A stretch of 55,903 bases of DNA, counting the filler, from Platydemus manokwari (lineage: Eukaryota): the NCBI GenBank assembly GCA_037951405.1. It is 5 parts of 5 records of this genome, joined end to end, with 100 filler letters (N's around TTAATTAATTAA, not from the genome) between each part and the next. Parts side by side here need not be neighbours in the genome. Positions count along the whole stretch, not along the records: positions 21,634 to 35,303 come from JBBMOY011651402.1; 4 more parts are not named here. One strand, given 5' to 3'. The notes beneath the pieces are model-generated. The model was given only the letters and a program-made list of their open reading frames with translations. It was not told where the DNA came from and made no database searches. Position numbers and translations under genes: made by a program. Position 1 is the stretch's first letter. Every line of letters starts with the position of its first letter. Of this stretch, positions 4,898 to 38,720 are shown piece by piece.

Positions 4898-5425
4898 GGT
4901 AACTAATGACGATAATAATAGTGTTTGGAAAATATAGGGATCTTTTCCAGATAAATCCCGCCAAAAAGTTAACCCACACCACCCAAAAAAGATTATAAAA
5001 AAGAGAAAATGAAAGAGAGGGTGAAATTGGGACATGCTATTAATAAATTGCTTTACCTCCAAATGATCTCATACAAGTAGCTGTCTACTAAGAATCGGTG
5101 TGTGTCGCATTTGCGCTAATTCTGCGTCTTGTATCTACAATGTACCAGAAAGATTCGATGGTTTGCGTGTGAACTCCAGTGGTTGGATCCACAAAGTTTT
5201 TGTTATGATTAACCGTTTGATGAGTATAATTTATGCCAATCATCATTTCAGTTTCTTGGTATGGTCTCTACATATCGCAAGTGATGATTGAGTCAGGAGC
5301 GATGCAGATCTATATTGTGTCTAGCAAAGTGGCCACAGTTCTATATGCCACTGCATATATAAATACTTCTTTAGTCTCCCTGCAGGTCCCTTTGAAAATC
5401 CTCTATTGGGGAAGGACACACCTCC
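4898..5425 (-). mobile_element. Decayed Merlin (IS1016/ISXO2-like) transposase, C-terminal half of DDE domain
   Basis: Minus-strand translation with stops and a frameshift: IFKGTCRETKEVFIYAVAYRTVATLLDTI*ICIAPDSIITCDM*RPY...YTHQTVNHNKNFVDPTTGVHTQTIESFW...LVDSYLYEIIWR. The H-x-TVNH-x3-FVDP-x-TG-x-HTQ-x-IES-x-W motif is characteristic of the family. Element ends are approximate. Confidence 0.85.
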
Positions 5426-10466: not shown

Positions 10467-11116
10467 CAGTGGTCTTCACACTTTTTGTGTTGCTACCCAA
10501 TTTACGAGTTCAAATTTTTTCGCGACCCCTAGGGACTAAAATAAAAATAATAAGGTAAATATTTGTAATAAAAAACTATTTTAAACACCAACAAATCAAA
10601 ATATATTTAATAATAACAACGGCTTTGCATATTCCATCATAAAATATCAAATCTTGTCTCTATTTCAGTGATCGCTGGTATTTCAGTACTAATTTCTGAT
10701 CCTAATATTCCTGGTCTTAATATAAGTCAGTGTCGAAAATGATTTTTCATACAAATAAGTTGATGCGAAAGTAAGAGAAAGTATGGCTAGTTCTGATAAT
10801 AGTAAATAATCTGTTTTTACACTAGCCCAAAAGGAGCTTAAGTTTTGTTTTTGAAAAATTTTCTTTCAAGCCCAAATCACTGAATCTTCTTGAGCTTTAA
10901 GTGAGAGATGATTCTTGTTGAGATTGCTTTTTGCATTAAGAAAAAATTTACTATTTTGTCGTCGAAAAATATCAATAAAATAAAAGAATAATTGTATTAA
11001 AAATTATTTAAAATTAGACTTCTCATATTTAAAGCACATTTTTTATGATTACATTACTATAACTCTGAAATTTCTGGGGCATCCAAAAGTTTTTTTGTGA
11101 CCTTTGAAGAACACTG
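10467..11116 (-). mobile_element. Internally deleted hAT (Buster/Charlie-type) element with transposase C-terminal dimerisation remnant
   Basis: TIRs CAGTGGTCTTCA (10467) and TGAAGAACACTG (11116). Minus frame LLTFASTYLYEKSFSTLTYIKTR matches the hATC motif LLPF.TTYLCE..FS....IKTK. Flanks TTATACGA and ATTTAGGG both have a central TA but are no longer identical. Confidence 0.8.
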
Positions 11117-13212: not shown

Positions 13213-14420
13213 TTAATCACGAGGTGAGAGGTTGCGCCATTTAGCAATCTGAGCATAAATATCTCCACGTAAATGCTGTGCCAAACATATAACGATGATC
13301 TAGAATCGATTAATAAATAATGGAAACAGTTGTCAATGCAATTAAACCTGCAATATTGCTATTCCAACCATGACTCCTGCCACTGGAACGATGTTGTTTT
13401 CGATCCATTTTTGGCCAGCAAATACGCAACCAATCGTATAGATTCGTTCATTTCGTATTTTATCCATACTTTTATCTCGAATCATTCGCCCACATAACAG
13501 ATTTCTTATATTAGTCTATTGTTATTATTAAATATCAACTGATTTCAATTTATGAAGAAACCTTGGCCGTTGTTTTACAGCACGAAGGCGGCACAGCACA
13601 TTTTTCGGCACTAGGAGAACTACAATTGAAATACATATTCATATCCCAATCATTGGGTCCATCAATGCCACAACAAAGCAACTAAATTAATAAATCCGTT
13701 AAAGCTAATCGTAAATCAATATTTACCAAATTAACGTACTTGTAAGCAAAAGAATTAAAAATAAAAACGTTTTAACTCACCCAAATCTCTTGAACCCAAT
13801 CGATGAGATCTCTCAAATCAACATTTTCCCGATAATTAATCAGAATCGTTTTCAAATTCAATTTGATTTGATCAATAACCCAATCTTTATAAACAAATGT
13901 CAACACACAAACGATAACTTCCATACAAAATATTATGCCAATAGTAACACAAAACTAAAATAAATGTATCAATAATGGATAATATTTATCTTTCATAAAA
14001 TGGAGCATACCAACATTAACATAGTGGTATTTTCTCTTAATGCACCAAAGCAACCCAAAAATCCAATGGCAAAAAATAACATTCCAATGATAACAAAAAA
14101 TAGGACTGGGTCAATCGCTAGATGGGTAAAATTTTTGAGATTTGTAAAATAAGATTTCTCAGTCCATGCCCAAACACCAATAGCTATTATGATCAATCCT
14201 AAAATCTAAATTTTGATCATAATTATAAAATAGATTTATAGTCTCAATATACCATAAATATAACATTCAGACCAAATAGAAAATGCTTCAAAAAGCAACC
14301 GACTTCTGATTTTTCACGTCTTCTTCGTTGAGCACGTACTGCTCTATGATATAGCCTATCTAATGTAGCTATTCCAAAATATCTATCTCTACTATTAGCT
14401 CTGTTTGGACGACCAGACAT
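13213..14420 (-). CDS. Tetraspanin, TspanC8 subgroup (Tspan5/14/17/33-like), 303 aa, 6 exons
   Basis: Exons 14420-14253, 14205-14011, 13954-13781, 13681-13562, 13515-13348, 13299-13213; all introns GT-AG and phase 0 (47, 56, 99, 46, 48 nt). Protein MSGRPN..KHFLFGLNVIFM|ILGLIIIAIGVWAW..GFLGCFGALREN..|..DLRDLIDWVQEIW|LLCCGIDGPNDWDMNMYFNCSSPSAEKCAVPPSCCK..|..LLCG..IYTIGC..|IIVICLAQHLRGDI..RD*. Four TM helices, CCG motif and 8 Cys in the large extracellular loop. Confidence 0.95.
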
Positions 14421-28800: not shown

Positions 28801-30055
28801 GATATAGAAAAAGCTTTCCTATTTATACACTTATTAACAGTGCTTCTTACTCTAGAAAAATAGAACTTTCAGAAAGTAAACTTATTAATCGAGATAATAA
28901 ATGAAAAGCGTAATGTAGCATTTATATGTGAACATCACATCCTGAGCAACATAAATTTAGCATGTTAAGTAAGAATGACGAATATTCATGATAATTTTCA
29001 ACAAAGTAATCAATCCCATTCTCGTCTAAATGGACAATGACATTACATATCGCATTTTCTTGAAATCCACAAAACTACATGCTTCATCATGCCGACGATA
29101 GCATGGTTGTCTAAAAGACATGAAATGACTTCAAGATATAGCACTAATAGATGCACATAAGCAAAAATATAATAGTAGCTTCGAATTTAAGGCAGAGAAA
29201 TATGGAAGACTCTGTAACATCAAAGTAGGAAATAAACAAAAAGAAAAAAGTGATAATCATAAAGTTAAAAGAAAAATAATCATCTAAGATCAGAGTGAAA
29301 GTCTACTATCAGTAGTTATGCATAAATTATGTTCACGCATTAAAAAATCTTTCAAAGAATTGGTCACTTACGAAACACTACAAAACTGATTCTTTACTTT
29401 TCACACTGATTACATTCCATCCAGTCTCTCTTTGCTATATTTTAGATTTTATTGACATTTTAAACGATCTTATGAATTTTGTAATGGGATTCAATACATA
29501 ATTTCTATTCATATATTTTTATTTTACTTTTATCTCATATTATCCAATTGATCAATGGTTTATAATGGACCAAACATAATAGTAAAAAATTATTAAACCA
29601 TTTAATGTGAAATAAACGTGTTCTTTAAAAATAATTTAAAATTCACATAATAAAGACTGCTAAAAACATGAGAATTTGAATCATACATGGATTGAACAGT
29701 GTGCTGATGTTATCTTAAAATAAATATAATAATAAAAATAGAAAAATTACTTGATTGACATTTTTAATAATTCCAAATAGATGATGTTAAACATGTTCCA
29801 CTGCACAAATCGTTAATAATTAAACATCATTTACAATACATTTGATAATTTGATCACTTACAATGAGCATTGCTTAGAAATCCATTACAGTTGGAATGGA
29901 CAATACAACAGCACATATAAAGAGTTAATTGGCATTTTCATCACCATTCCAGATACAACAAAGCAATTTACGTTAAATAACTGAAATGGAAATTTTACCT
30001 AATTTCTGATTATCATGAATTGAACTGGCAAATGAAATAGTTCTTCAAAATTCTT

Positions 30056-30273
30056 TTATGGTTTCACAAAATGATATCCTTGCCAATTTTGATTTGATTT
30101 CTTCCGACTTGCAGGCAGAGTACTGCTAGTATACATCACTAATACACATGACCCTTTAGTATTATCATAGAAGAATGATTTGCATTGATTTTCACGAACA
30201 CATCTGCAAACAAATATCAACACATTATCAAATTTAATAAAATATTTTACAATGAAGCACAATGTAGTATAGT
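30056..30273 (-). pseudogene. C-type lectin + PAN protein, copy 3, 5'-truncated
   Basis: Exon 2 (30203-30056: CVRENQCKSFFYDNTKGSCVLVMYTSSTLPASRKKSNQNWQGYHFVKP*), intron 30250-30204, and only the last codons of exon 1 (TILHCAS(L), cf. TKLHCGSL). Everything upstream is unrelated sequence. Confidence 0.85.
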
Positions 30274-30507
30274 AATCTAGTAATCCTGATAGTAATAGTA
30301 ATGTTAATATCAAGAATGATAATCAGCTACCGTCAGCAACAGATAACTTTAAACAGAAACAGAAGAACCCAGGATACTCGATGTTAAAAGTACAGTACAT
30401 AATGTATCTGGTGTATAATGTAAAGTATAAAGTACAGTACATAGTGTATCTACTGTATAAAATAAATCGTTTAAGTGTTTTTGTAAAACAAGTATTTATA
30501 TTTTAGA

Positions 30508-32043
30508 ATGAGCCACAAACTCACAGAAACAGATGAAACTACCATGCCCAAGAGAAAAGGAATATCAGTAAAGAAGACGGTAAAAGCCCGGATCTTTCAT
30601 GACAGAATAGAAGCGTTTATGAATGTAAACCATTGGAGGCAGACCAATATTACAAGGGTACAAGATATGCCCAATTGCCTAAAGGAAAAAGCAGTTGGAG
30701 AAAGGCACCTCGTCAATCCAAAGAAAAATTTGGGGAGTTGAACAGCGACTGCCTCCTAATCTAGAATCACAGATCCTTTTTGCGAATGAAAATGACGGAG
30801 AAGGATATTAAAAGAAGAGTGCGATTTGTCTATGTGGCATTAGCACAACCGGAATTCGCCAGTGGGCTTGTTCCGATAGCTGTTCATATTAGATTATCAA
30901 GGGCAAGTGACGTATTCTAACGTAATTACCCCCAAAGCTCAGCTTTTGGATTACCGAACGACTCAACATGGCCTAATTGAAGAAACGATTCAAGGAAGAA
31001 GAGATGAACTATTGGCCAAAGAGGAAGTCAATAAACTATTGAAGGGAACAATAGTTATCGGCCACAGAGTATTAGAAGGACTAATAGCTCTGAGAATCAC
31101 CCTTGGAGACCTATGTGGAGTGAAGGAACTATAAAATTTGCCAGTATTTGGAGAAGATAGCGTAAAGAGGAGTAAAGGGAGATTCACTCTCCAAAGATTT
31201 GCAAGTCAATATATCGGCTACGAGTTCCCGAGAAGATTTACGAAATATGAAAAAAGTCACATAGTGGAAATAATAAAGAAAATCTAACTTGCGGGGAAGC
31301 TAGGTGGACGGATCATTACTTATTCGAACCCAAGGAAACCAGAGAAGAAAGGAAGGACAAGGAAGAAACCAAGGTGTGAATCCCGTCCAAGAAAATAGAG
31401 CAGCCCAAGAAAACAGAACAGTCAAAGAAAACGGAACAACCAACGAAGAAAAAGGAGACTGGGAAGACTCAAATCTCATCACGGATAATGCAAAAACCCA
31501 GACCATCCACAAGCAGTGGAACAGGAGAATGCCAACCCTCCACCAATAAAAGGATTAAGTTAGAGGAAATTGATATTAAATAGATGCTATGGGACACTCC
31601 AGACTCTGTAGAGATTCTGGATGAAGATGAACTATGGAAATATACTAAAAGCCTTGATTTGGACAACCCAGAGTCCAAGATTATATACGAGTGGCATACT
31701 CGCGCGGAGGTGGAAGAGAAGAGATACTTCACCCTGGAAGACGAAGAAGTGCAGCCACAAGAATCCCAAGCAAGGGAAAGTCGAGAGGGTACAGTCCCTG
31801 GAAGAAAGAATCGCAGAGTTGGAACGCAAAGGCGCAAAAAAGCAAATTCAGAAAAGAAAAGAAAATGGAAGGAGGCGAAGACGCAATTCGACCTTAATGA
31901 AGTCCCTCTCCAACAAATCCAAGAGGATGGGGACATATTTCAGCTAGGCTATTTAGCCTATTTCTGTAAAAGAACCGGAGAAGAGCGCCGTATCAAGAGG
32001 AAAATATGAGCGCGGAATTAGAAATGAAAAGACATTGAATTAG
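30508..32043 (+). pseudogene. Decayed ~510-codon accessory ORF with a Rex4/ISG20-like DEDDh 3'-5' exonuclease fold and a charged C-terminal tail
   Basis: Read across frameshifts and stops: ..AVHI/DYQGQVTYSNVITPKAQLLDYRTTQHGLIEETIQ..AKEEVNKLLKGTIVIGHRVLEGLIALRI..FTLQRFASQYIGYEF.., matching the Rex4 pattern VN..G.V.YD.YVKP...V.DYRT..SGI..V..LLKGRILVGH....DL..L..SLK.LA...LG. Then KKxEQ(P/S) x3, an acidic block and a coiled-coil/basic end. Confidence 0.75.
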
Positions 32044-32160
32044 AATTTTGATTGTGATTTTAATAATGATTATATTTTTGGGCGAATTAATAAATGTATT
32101 TTGTTGTTTGATTTTATTGTTTTTGAGATTAGGAAATTTCAAAAATTTTGAGGGGGCGAA

Positions 32161-33120
32161 TGAAGAGTACACATTGTAAAAATAGTTAAATACAAACGAA
32201 AGTAAATTTCTGAAAATAAAAGTTAAGTTTAAAGATAAAGAAAATAAATTAATTTTATTAAAATTAGATAATAAAGTAGAAAAATAATTTTTAAATTAAA
32301 TTATTAATAAGAAAAAAATAATTATTTGAATAAATAAAAAAAATAAGAAATTTTAAATTATTATTAGAAAAAAGAAATTTGTTTTAACAAATTAAAATAA
32401 TTATATAGAAGCCAAGATTTTAAGAAATTATCGATCAACATCGGGTGATATTGATCCAAATGTAGGAGTTGAATATACATGTCAAATCGGGTTAGAGAAA
32501 AGTGCTGCAAGTGGTGCGAACACAATAACAGTATATAAAGGCGAACTTATAGTGAACAAGTCATAATTAATCAGGACCAAAGAAGCGTAGTGATTAGAAA
32601 TCAGGATTATCAAAAGCCCACAAGAAAGAATAGTGAATTGTTTTATCAGGAAACCTTAGAAGAGCAAATCGACAGGTTATTTTGTTTTTGATTTCAGTAA
32701 TAGTGAAATATTCGAGGAAGTAGTATTCCCGAATATTGAAATCAGTAAATTAACTAGTGATAGAATATTCGCGGATAGTATCCCGAATATTAGTTTTTCA
32801 ATTGTATTGTGATATTCGTGGACAGTGCTTCCCGAATATCGGTATTGTATTGTAGAGTGTATAGAGCGTCCGTACCCCGTTACGCACGCTGGTAGTTTGT
32901 AGTATCGACCAGGAGTAGTCCTCGGTCAGTAATTCAAATTGGTGAGCGGACCAGTTCCGTGATTATAACAAAACTTTATTAGGGGCTAGGCCTTTTGTGT
33001 GATTAATAAAGAGTTGTATATATACTGTTATAGAAATATAACTTAGTGTGCAACTTTGTTTTGAATTTGGACTCAGGTTATTACGAGGATTGTTGCGCTC
33101 TACACTCGGTAGACCCAACA
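32161..33120 (+). mobile_element. LTR family copy B (3' LTR, 960 bp)
   Basis: TG...CA termini, preceded by a PPT; TATATAAA at ~32533 and AATAAA at ~33005; colinear with 51505-52445. Confidence 0.85.
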
Positions 33121-34494
33121 TTATTATTATTATTACTATTATTATTATTATTATCAAGATATTAAACAGATAATTATGGAGAACATAATAATAACAAAAC
33201 AATAATAATTATATTAATAATACAATAGTAAATAAGCCAAGCGAATAAAATAAAACCCGTAATAAGATTTATTTAAGAAACTAAAAATTTAACAAGAACA
33301 AAAAGAGCAACAAAGAACGGCAAACCGTGAAATGCACTATTAAAGTAGATTTTGGATAAAAATCTAACTGAGGGATATGAAAAATACAAAATGGAGCCGA
33401 CTATTGTTATTAATAAATGATTAATTTAATTAATTAATTTTTTTAAGAATTTATTACAATGCTATGACTAAATATGATACGAAATTTAATCACTCTTAAA
33501 ACTCCATAAATCTCCTTGTCAGTTCGGTTTCCGTGTAATCTCGAAATAACTCCTGCTCTGGTAGACTTAAGAATTTTTTTTAGTGAGTAAATACTACAAA
33601 CAGTAATTTCTTAATTAATAATTTTTGAACTGATGACATCGCTTATCACGTCTCCATTTATTTTAAACATTTTATTTAATATATGGTGATTTTCTCGTTT
33701 TTTCCAAATTTAATGTCTCTATTCTATTTCATTTGTTAATAACTATATAGCAATTTTTTGTTTTAGCATTTTATATCTCGTTATTATTTTTATTTGCTTT
33801 TTATTTATCATCGATTATTAATTACAGGATCTGTAATTCGGTGATATACGTAGCCTTGAATACTCGATTGTTGAGCTATTTGAAGTCAAAATTGATGAAA
33901 CATTCAACTCTATGTTAACTTACGGTAACATTTATTTCCTCAGTATTTTTGTGAGAATATAATTTGGTGACTAAAATTTTTTTACTTGCTTTTGATTCAA
34001 TTGAGAAATTTAATATTTACCGATAACAACATTGGCAATATTGATAGAATTGAATAAATGTAGACCCATTTAGTAGAAAACCCTTTAGCAGAATTGATTT
34101 GTAAACTATCTCCGTCGATTTTCAACTAAGAAATTTTTTAAAAATATTCTTACCACTTTTTTCTGAATTTCATAGTGATAATTTTTATTTATTTATATTT
34201 TTTAATCATAAGAATTTTTTCTCTGAAAAATATAAACATCTACTACTTTAAGTCAATTAATTCATTAATTTTTAAAATAAACCTAATTTATTTAAAACAA
34301 AAAATTAACATTTGGTTTAAAAATTAAAACAAATTATTGCTAATATATTTATAAAGCCGAAATTATAATTTCACCAACCTAACAAAATTTATAATCGAAA
34401 AACAGAAAGCAAAACATTTATTGCATCAATTCAAAAATTCCAAAAGCGATAAAATAATCAAGGAGGTCTAAAGATACAACAAAACTCAATTCTT

Positions 34495-34751
34495 TCAACG
34501 ATTGCCATTCATAGAGGTTCCGTGTAAGTATTTTTTTTCTAGATACATTAATTCAGGTGGGATGAGATTCGAGCCATTTATTCCCTTTACACTAATTCGA
34601 CTAGGACGCACCATAATGCCATGATCAGGTGGGCATACAAAATATCGCTTATTTAATACCAACCCATCGTGTTTACCAGTTTTATGACGTAGCTCAATAC
34701 CAACCCATATACCATCCGAAAAGTTAACGGATCCAACATATCGAACGATAC
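34495..34751 (-). CDS. Terminal exon encoding a CAP-Gly domain, CLIP3/CLIP4-like
   Basis: Acceptor ..taatgacAG, then GIVRYVGSVNFSDGIWVGIELRHKTGKHDGLVLNKRYFVCPPDHGIMVRPSRISVKGING..*. GK(N/H)DG motif present; the VRPSR-x4-GING tail is typical of the last CAP-Gly of CLIP4-like proteins. Upstream exons not found. Confidence 0.88.
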
Positions 34752-35303
34752 CTGTCATTATAAACTTCATTAAAATCGTTTACAAAATAATGCAAATTTG
34801 AATGAATCACACGTGTCTTGGATTAAACGATTAATTTTGTATTATCGGATTAAATAAATAATGATTGCAAATCTACGAATAATAATGTTGATATAGACAA
34901 ATGATCTTCGTCTTACCATAAAAATTAATGAACAATTAAATTTTAAACAATATTGATTACAATCTAAAATATATAATGAGCACTGAGAATATTAAAATAA
35001 CATTTCGTACAAATGTCAGTGATCGAATTACTTTAAAATATCGCAGCGATTTTAAAATTAAACTGATTTATGTTAGAAAGTAATTATAATCATAAAAAAA
35101 TACTTAATAAATTAAACTTTATTATTTCTATTCATCACATTGGATATAGGACATGGAAAACTGTTGGTAATAATGGCAATCACAATAATAAAGATCGTGT
35201 TATCAATATTGGCAATAATAATACAGGGAAAAATAATAATTATAATGTGTACAAAATAGGAAATAATAACAATAATATGAAAATGATATTAATAAATCAA
35301 TTA

Positions 35304-37289: not shown

Positions 37290-38720
37290 TTTGAGTTTTA
37301 AGGAGCACAAATAAACGTTATGAATATAAGGTATACAGGGTAAGTTTAAGTTGAGCTAATGATGGTAAACTAGTGGTTATTGATAAAGTGGAATCAAGAA
37401 TCGAAGCATGAATGCAAACAAAGTAGATATCATCAGTAGTCGAACATATGTCATCATAAATTATAAACTGCATAAAATTTCAAAAATAAAGCTTAGCAGG
37501 AACAATAAATTTTTCAAATAAAAAAATAGAACAAGAGAAAGACAGACAACTTCATTGGTGAGATAATAGCCTAATTCGGAAGAAACATTAATGATGAAGA
37601 CAGATCCACAAAAAAAACTGAAAGAAAGGCCTCGATTATTTGAGATCACCAGGAATAATAGAAACTTATTCATGGCAAATCATTGGGATATTGTACAGAA
37701 TTAGTGAAACAAATGATAATCCATTAAACCACAACCCGCGAAAATATAGAAGAGATCGCAGTGAAAACCATCGTGGAATACTCCTTTGTATATTAAAAAA
37801 AGGAAAGGAAATATATCATACTATACCTTGATTTTAGACAGTTAAATTAAATAATACAAAGACAATCTTTTCCAATGCCAAATGTAAAAGAAATGTTAAA
37901 TGTATTATACAGTTTTAAATACTTTATTGATTTTGGTAATATGTATTACCAAATAGGATTCGATGAAAAGTCCCAAAAATAGCATTTTCAACAAAAAACG
38001 GTCAATATTGTTTCACTATTATGCCACTTGGAATTTCAGCTGCACCTGGTATTTTTCAAGAATTAATGACTAAAGTACTTAATGGTATGGGAGACACAGG
38101 CCTTATGGTTTACTTAGATGATATATTAATAATTTATAAAACAGTAGGACACTGTAAAACCTTATAAGAAGCAATGCAGAGAACTATGAAAGTTAGATTA
38201 CGAATAAAAATATTAAAAGAAATCAAGCTTCTAGGCCACATAATAAGTAAATAAAGAATCAAACCATACTCAAATAAAATTGAAGAAACTTAATTCTTAA
38301 ATACAGATCGATAAAGGATGATATCAATTCGATAATAAAAGATAAACAAAAAACTATCTAGGTTCTAATACCACCAGAGATTAAATACACATTGACTTAG
38401 TTAGGCATAAGTTATATTTGATAAGAAAATAGACAGATCCCAGTGACATGTCAATAGCAAAGTGGATAGGGAAGATATCAAAAGATATATTGAGGAAAAT
38501 CAGAAAAGATAAACAGTAGAAATAACAAAACTCAAACTTAAGTTAGGGGACAATGTATTTATTAATAAAAAAGTACGGACCAAATACCAATAAAGATTCA
38601 ATGGCCCATATGAAGTGATACGAAAGAACCATAAAATGAGTCATCGATTACAGAGAAAAAATGGTGCAGTGATAACAAATAGTGGTAGAGAAAATCAAAT
38701 CTTTCATTGGATATGAGGAC
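37290..38720 (+). mobile_element. Ty3/Gypsy remnant with RT core and integrase GPY/F tail, multiply deleted
   Basis: FIDFGNMYYQIGFDEKSQK/IAFSTKNGQYCFTIMPLGISAAPGIFQELMTKVL..MVYLDDILI (YLDD 38111-38122), IKLLGHII, and LKLGDNVFINKKVRTKYQ*RFNGPYEVI (~38535-38620). Boundaries are approximate. Confidence 0.9.

Follow-up and report, generated by a model that had tools for sequence, protein, structure and literature searches.

What does an LTR retroelement gain from an exonuclease gene, and what might it still gain from one that has lost every catalytic residue? These questions arise from a stretch of 55,903 nucleotides of the Platydemus manokwari genome (27% G+C, in keeping with a planarian, for which PMC11410931 gives over 70% A+T, and scaffolded with gaps; hereafter the window), in which the original prediction, made from the sequence alone, placed a decayed ORF resembling DEDDh exonucleases of the Rex4/ISG20 type in the env (ORF3) position of an LTR element. 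The splice acceptor, the decayed, purine-rich and intronless ORF, the polypurine tract (PPT) and the 3' LTR that it described are all where it had put them, and the features of the window that concern this element and its LTRs are the following:

30264-30506, plus strand: element-internal spacer; its last part is a T-rich tract with the splice-acceptor AG at 30505-30506
30508-30692, plus strand: start of the ORF, with the first helix and PN-x-LK motif of an N-terminal barrel domain (weak barrel-profile match)
30692-30695, plus strand: position at which about 92 codons are deleted, taking out most of the cupin/AlkB-like barrel and disrupting the frame (motif spacing, other contigs)
30768-31287, plus strand: DEDDh fold of ISG20/Rex4 type, devoid of its catalytic residues and interrupted by a frame break near 30883 and by stops at 31132 and 31285
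31288-32009, plus strand: charged low-complexity tail of the ORF (one more frame break; stops at 31377 and 31581)
32150-32160, plus strand: PPT immediately 5' of the LTR (purines at 10 of 11 positions, then TG)
32161-33120, plus strand: 3' LTR of 960 bp, TG..CA, its first part AT-rich, resembling the LTR at 51505-52445
51505-52445, plus strand: related LTR, apparently solo (77% identity to the LTR at 32161 over 906 columns)
17743-18927, minus strand: more distantly related solo LTR of 1185 bp, with a 4-bp target-site duplication

The T-rich tract and AG of the acceptor are separated from the ATG at 30508 by a single A (30507), and the ORF continues without introns to its last stop at 32007-32009 (63% purine, some 500 codons in its present state). 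Its frame breaks number at least three (near 30692, near 30883, and between 31285 and 31380), five in-path stops interrupt it (30762, 31132, 31285, 31377 and 31581), and its frame 1 contains all three of the motifs that had been quoted as Rex4/ISG20-like. The LTR at 17743-18927 is 62% identical to that at 32161 overall and 78% identical over 407 nt at the 3' end. No target-site duplication was seen at the LTR at 51505-52445, and the ORF-bearing copy is without a 5' end. The left edge of its spacer (about 30264) abuts a fragment, on the minus strand and ending at 30266, of a lectin-like host gene, and the other half of this gene was not found beyond the LTR; we therefore read this edge as a deletion or an assembly join rather than as an integration end. 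Two of the three LTRs are directly followed by an (ATT)n or (AAT)n microsatellite (33121-33154 and 52446-52610), possibly a target preference or a later expansion.

No gag or pol adjoins the ORF in the window, where two decayed Gypsy RT/RNase H remnants lie separately near 22.5 kb (22477-23300, minus strand) and 38 kb (37600-38290, plus strand). The RT-RNase H piece at 22498-22701, which is 57% identical over 68 residues to a Gypsy-type polyprotein discussed below (P0083), was rejected as part of the ORF copy because it is on the other strand and 7.5 kb away. The lectin-like fragment belongs to a trio of related host-like genes, all with stops or truncated (24934-25860, plus strand; 30050-30266 and 48079-48906, minus strand), in which a C-type lectin and, after it, a PAN/apple-like stretch were recognised by eye and Pfam gave no match. 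The window also holds, on the minus strand, a host tetraspanin gene (13345-14423) with introns of about 47-56 nt, for which the cluster atlas returned generic tetraspanin clusters, a CAP-Gly exon (34498-34779), and weak remnants under the Pfam cut-off of an IS1595/Merlin-like transposase and a hAT dimerisation domain (5091-5267 and 10692-10865).

Contig depth in one public run, perhaps the window's own source and a quantity not to be equated with copy number, was 7-9 in the left flank, jumped from 197 (30155-30285) to 1145 (30286-30416), ranged from 234 to 2202 in every bin of the ORF, reached 9361 in the LTR and fell to 15 in the right flank. The stretch is thus a repeat, with a depth about 30- to 300-fold over that of the left flank, and in this run the proposal of a multi-copy LTR element carrying the ORF is borne out. 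It might nonetheless be argued that the ORF comes from some other mobile element, or from a family of host genes, and touches the LTR through a rearrangement or an assembly join, since the assembly is gapped, the left end is a non-integration junction, and DEDDh nucleases are carried by KolobokD DNA transposons (PMC9587614, in its accessible text). Yet the PPT exactly abuts the TG of the LTR, the depth stays far over background and never drops to it between ORF and LTR, position 32138 is covered by 15 contigs (the best of which leaves 55 letters to its end), and relatives of the ORF sit behind a retropepsin ORF, so that we regard an accidental contact as very unlikely.

The assignment of the ORF to the Rex4/ISG20-like, DEDDh class has held. 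Translated, 30889-31287 matches ISG20 (E 5.3e-6) and ISG20L2 (E 1.8e-5) among 177,635 PDB sequences, and relatives are predicted to have the ISG20 fold; Pfam found no family in five pieces of the decayed ORF. A word-based homologue search returned 428 candidates, none significant, with the decayed frame as query, and nine matches with the family alignment. A full HMMER search yielded 69 proteins, which motif sorting divided into 46 of one family and 23 cellular-type Rex4 relatives ('cellular-type' is our own label, and source names stand on only three of those proteins). The family profile scores 96.5 bits on the window, where 500 shuffles reach at most 2.0, a result that is partly circular because the profile was built from hits of the window query; its E values for two frames of the nuclease domain are 2.7e-28 and 2.3e-7, and profile comparison places the domain nearest ISG20/ISG20L2 (E 2.8e-30). 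Family members have about 500 residues (mostly 300-700), 22 of the 42 aligned match Pfam RNase_T, and 17 of 20 looked-up matches originate in ENA, JGI and Logan contigs. Nothing was found in viral contigs for two sub-alignments of the family, nor in prokaryote genomes, and the cluster atlas returned only generic RNase_T clusters for the member P0020. Three proteins of about 780-800 residues (P0002, P0004 and P0016), two of them named from the spittlebug Clastoptera arizonana, carry up to four tandem Rex4-like domains, mostly dead. A C-terminal motif that by eye seemed common to the window and P0008, P0012 and P0065 was not significant when scored.

In a tree of 95 domains, from which four short proteins had been dropped and which did not include the host's own REXO4, the 36 cellular-type rows form one side of a branch supported at 100/99, and the window ORF lies on the family side, within an 11-row set supported at 96/87. 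When the catalytic columns were left out and a simpler model was used, the split between cellular-type and family rows stayed at 100 and the support for the window's branch went down to 72. An intronless, decayed, ISG20-like ORF is also what a processed pseudogene of host REXO4, ISG20 or AEN beside a solo LTR would look like. We reject this origin as extremely improbable, because in both trees the ORF nests in the element-type family, away from the cellular-type domains, and because it is repeated in the run and retains remnants of a second, barrel domain.

A working nuclease in this lineage, in contrast, is not supported. The original prediction had overlooked that all five catalytic positions (D, E, D, H, D) are lost in the window ORF and that about 92 N-terminal codons are missing. 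None of the eight scorable members of the window's branch is intact, whereas 40 of 44 scorable rows outside it, near-duplicates counted, keep D, E, D/E, H and D; the active members carry a His in the third motif, which places them in the DEDDh and not the DEDDy class. Four dead rows sit outside the window's branch. The reading of several independent catalytic losses was set aside; the tree needs two changes, and a single origin may also fit. Six of the eight scorable members of the dead branch are nevertheless open frames, of 511-609 residues.

Such open frames bear on whether the gene is neutral cargo, a captured passenger that drifts and, in the dead branch, is on its way to loss. The decay of the window copy agrees with this, as does the report that rotifer ORF3s neither track copy number clearly nor clearly depart from neutrality (PMC5408684, in the part accessible). 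However, members of the dead branch only 17-51% identical to one of their number (P0012) keep long open frames, common motifs and a confidently predicted fold, and we consider mere drift very improbable.

Comparison with other contigs of the run helps to separate the decay of this copy from the loss of catalysis. Between 30640 and 31300 there are 53 places, about 8%, where at least 30% of the depth has another letter, and the other-copy differences listed include the frame break near 30883 and two of the three stops that fall within the nuclease domain or shortly ahead of it; much of the decay of the window ORF is therefore private to this copy. No acidic catalytic codon occurs among the 40 of the 53 differences listed, and since the whole branch is also without an intact site, the catalytic loss is older than the decay of the window copy. 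The window's own copy is dead, and its interest lies in the family that it revealed.

AlphaFold2 models of two intact relatives (pLDDT 75.5 and 78.4; confident over about 340-370 residues) indicate what kind of protein this family encodes. DEDDh proteins lead the fold-match lists of both models, and for the C-terminal domains ISG20 is the top match (Z 18.5, rmsd 2.2, 158 aligned; Z 17.6, rmsd 2.5, 158 aligned). Near structural matches include the small-RNA-degrading nuclease SDN1 (Z 13-14), and Exuperantia, which is catalytically inactive, is also among the matches (Z 10.9-11.2). The tail that corresponds to 31288-32009 is mostly of low confidence in both models.

The N-terminal domain is predicted to be a double-stranded beta-helix, a barrel that is not known from REXO4 or ISG20. 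In the shorter model, of P0020, plain cupins rank first (Z 10-11, about 95 aligned); in that of P0012, with a complete N-terminus, the barrel matches ALKBH6 (Z 11.8, rmsd 3.5, 138 aligned, 6% identity), Ofd2 (Z 11.7) and, by Foldseek, ABH8 (E 9.5e-6). Viral structural matches include several plant-virus replicases, which carry AlkB domains. Pfam and profile searches gave no sequence-level match for the barrel, whose single conserved His is present in 31 of 35 rows; of an HxD/E..H iron-ligand set, neither an HxD pair nor a second His is conserved, the register against AlkB having been set by eye. As there is neither a conserved iron-binding set nor a sequence match, 'AlkB-like' here denotes a resemblance of fold only. 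In the window, residues 21-59 of the ORF match the barrel profile weakly (E 0.0017, three frames), PN-x-LK and SFLR lie 35.7 codons apart, where the median for 15 members is 128, and other contigs have a joint and loose ends at 30692/30695. The window copy has lost most of the barrel, about 92 codons.

How such a gene might be expressed, and by what kind of element, was approached through the loci of relatives. A metagenome scan gave 14 loci. Thirteen of them are family members, which belong to a single active sub-branch and include near-duplicates; the longest of these loci measures 5.7 kb. The motif TTYAG lies at most 8 nt from the start codon in 11 of these 13 relatives and in the window, compared with 10 of 743 and 54 of 1990 other ATGs (1-3%); the pattern was picked after seeing the data, and a stricter one is found in 6 of 13. 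We predict that the gene is probably expressed from a spliced transcript. Ahead of the nuclease gene, locus L001 has an ORF with two membrane segments and two coiled-coil ORFs, and L011 (3-1679) has, directly upstream, a retropepsin fused to a membrane protein. The short coiled-coil ORFs ahead of the gene are duplicated (L001, 1773-2204 and 2669-3058; L002, 588-1166), and two of the three have an acceptor-like motif just 5' of their ATG.

The protease region of L011 shares 59% identity over 155 residues with the end of P0082, a protein with RNase H, integrase and extra proteases, and 35% with a protease of P0083, whose order is PR-RT-RH-IN-membrane protein and whose best solved match is Ty3-G (E 1e-129). 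RT or integrase did not occur with the nuclease ORF on one contig, nor did any contig have two LTRs. Where the original prediction had left the superfamily unproven, retropepsin homology now gives indirect support for Ty3/Gypsy, in the active branch only. The window's element, with a tract and LTR of its own, is tied to the Gypsy-type element of the relatives by gene homology, and through this branch rather than through anything in its own element it is probably Ty3/Gypsy as well. The polyproteins P0081, P0082 and P0083, together with L011 (3-1679), are of Gypsy type with extra retropepsin domains and an apparent C2H2 finger, which lie after the integrase in P0082 and before the RT in P0083, and with a fused membrane protein that has no Pfam match, an unusual env-like arrangement. 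A search of viral contigs for P0082 found nothing.

Six of the 13 loci end in a common C-run-GAGA-TGT motif followed by AT-rich DNA, possibly the start of an LTR; the window has a G-rich tract instead. In L004 (2757-2800), as in L005, L006, L007 and L012, a hairpin of the CAGCG-AGGT-CGCTG type precedes the C-run, the GAGA and then the TGT, so that a C-rich stand-in occupies the place expected of a PPT. An 18-nt terminal motif has three exact matches in viral contigs, without the family or pol.

From these gene orders we infer a complex element of Gypsy type in which the nuclease gene is the last of several accessory genes on the 3' side. The predicted env (ORF3) position is upheld in so far as the gene is accessory, lies on the 3' side and follows a conserved acceptor motif. 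It does not hold in the sense of an env replacement, because membrane-protein and coiled-coil ORFs lie ahead of the nuclease gene in relatives.

We propose that a Gypsy ancestor captured a Rex4/ISG20-type nuclease, which would be expressed from spliced RNA. Active members (DEE/D-H-D) may act on the 3' ends of single-stranded nucleic acid, shortening or degrading it, and the barrel would probably bind the substrate; the window's branch would have kept both folds minus catalysis for binding only. That there was one old capture, after which most branches stayed active 3'-5' exonucleases and the window's was retained for binding, seems to us quite likely. The window's branch would be a pseudo-nuclease lineage that likely binds RNA instead of cutting it, and its protein would act as a decoy by sequestering small RNAs of the host or by shielding the element's RNA. 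Few transposon-encoded counters to small-RNA silencing are known in animals.

The retention of both folds without catalysis disfavours trimming as a required step and favours binding. This bears on the alternative that the gene is borne by the element for its own cycle, in 3'-end trimming or protection of RNA or cDNA or as a particle scaffold, with no role against the host. The five residues kept by most members outside the window's branch speak for such a service, and 3'-end processing has been proposed for the DEDDy ORF3s of rotifers (Rodriguez et al., PMC5408684, in its accessible text). At least 12 scorable members, eight in the window's branch and four outside it, have nonetheless lost catalysis with long frames open, a poor fit to required trimming; a scaffold role may still apply. 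Overall, we judge a purely internal role rather unlikely.

Counter-defence, against host small-RNA or RNA-decay defence, may instead be the job of the gene, a reading whose chances we put slightly below even. The decoy draws on precedents, namely the fold match to SDN1, the inactive Maelstrom and EXD1, and the arenavirus exonuclease, which acts in immune suppression according to the portion of the source available (PMC7968707). A more specific version appears unlikely to us. In it, a still undescribed group of retrovirus-like, complex Ty3/Gypsy elements in invertebrates would carry a spliced counter-defence gene in which an AlkB-like domain, dead as an enzyme but reading methylated nucleotides, is coupled to an ISG20-like 3' exonuclease; the product would remove or sequester marked host guide RNAs, and at least one branch, the window's included, would now be a pure binding decoy. 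For the whole chain, from the decayed 3' end of a multi-copy LTR element, through a last gene that is ISG20-like and has lost catalysis, to an RNA-binding counter-defence decoy, we consider the chances about even.

The closest known systems are the LTR elements of rotifers, whose exonuclease ORF3s are of the DEDDy class in the accessible parts of the reports (PMC5408684, PMC5718144, PMC6338049). As in the present family, the ORF3 of the bdelloid elements Juno and Vesta is a 3'-5' exonuclease homologue encoded by a separate accessory gene 3' of pol, and DEDD is changed to DEED there as in most active family members; unlike it, the rotifer proteins are RNase D/mut-7/WRN-like with intact sites (PMC5408684, from the same accessible text). 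The present family is DEDDh, nearest ISG20/ISG20L2; its proteins have an N-terminal barrel, their genes follow further accessory ORFs, and some of its branches are dead. Human ISG20 and ISG20L2, the Rex4 group and Arabidopsis SDN1 are the best sequence or fold matches of the nuclease domain, but these are cellular genes, while our family is a separate side of the tree and the window's branch is without D-E-D-H-D. Maelstrom, EXD1 and Exuperantia combine a DEDD fold with loss of catalysis, as here, but are host proteins and not the nearest fold matches. The first two have been described as inactive DEDD derivatives (PMC5408684, in the part accessible).

Among mobile elements, KolobokD has a DEDDh nuclease as well, but it is a DNA transposon with a TREX/ERI1/Exuperantia-like nuclease (PMC9587614, as far as its accessible text extends), and the planarian Burro is Gypsy-like with many extra domains but exceeds 30 kb and has no exonuclease listed in the accessible portion of its description (PMC6431247). 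Phalaenopsis orchid Gypsy elements share with our family an extra ORF with a barrel of the 2OG-oxygenase type; in the accessible part of that report the orchid AlkB domain is an active m6A demethylase, whereas the family barrel is alike by fold only and is fused to a nuclease fold (PMC9289625). The word exonuclease is absent from a survey of env-bearing Gypsy elements (PMC13524379), and in the accessible open literature, with Repbase outside its scope, we found no LTR element described as carrying a nuclease that is ISG20-like or fused to a barrel.

The family would thus represent a second capture of an exonuclease by LTR elements, from the ISG20/Rex4 group, with a pairing of domains for which that literature gave no match. 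The role of exonuclease ORF3s has been open since the rotifer reports, and this family, a natural control set of intact open frames with and without catalytic residues, bears on the choice between replication and counter-defence. Exonuclease ORF3s in LTR elements were already known; what is new here is the different class of nuclease, the added barrel domain and the dead branch.
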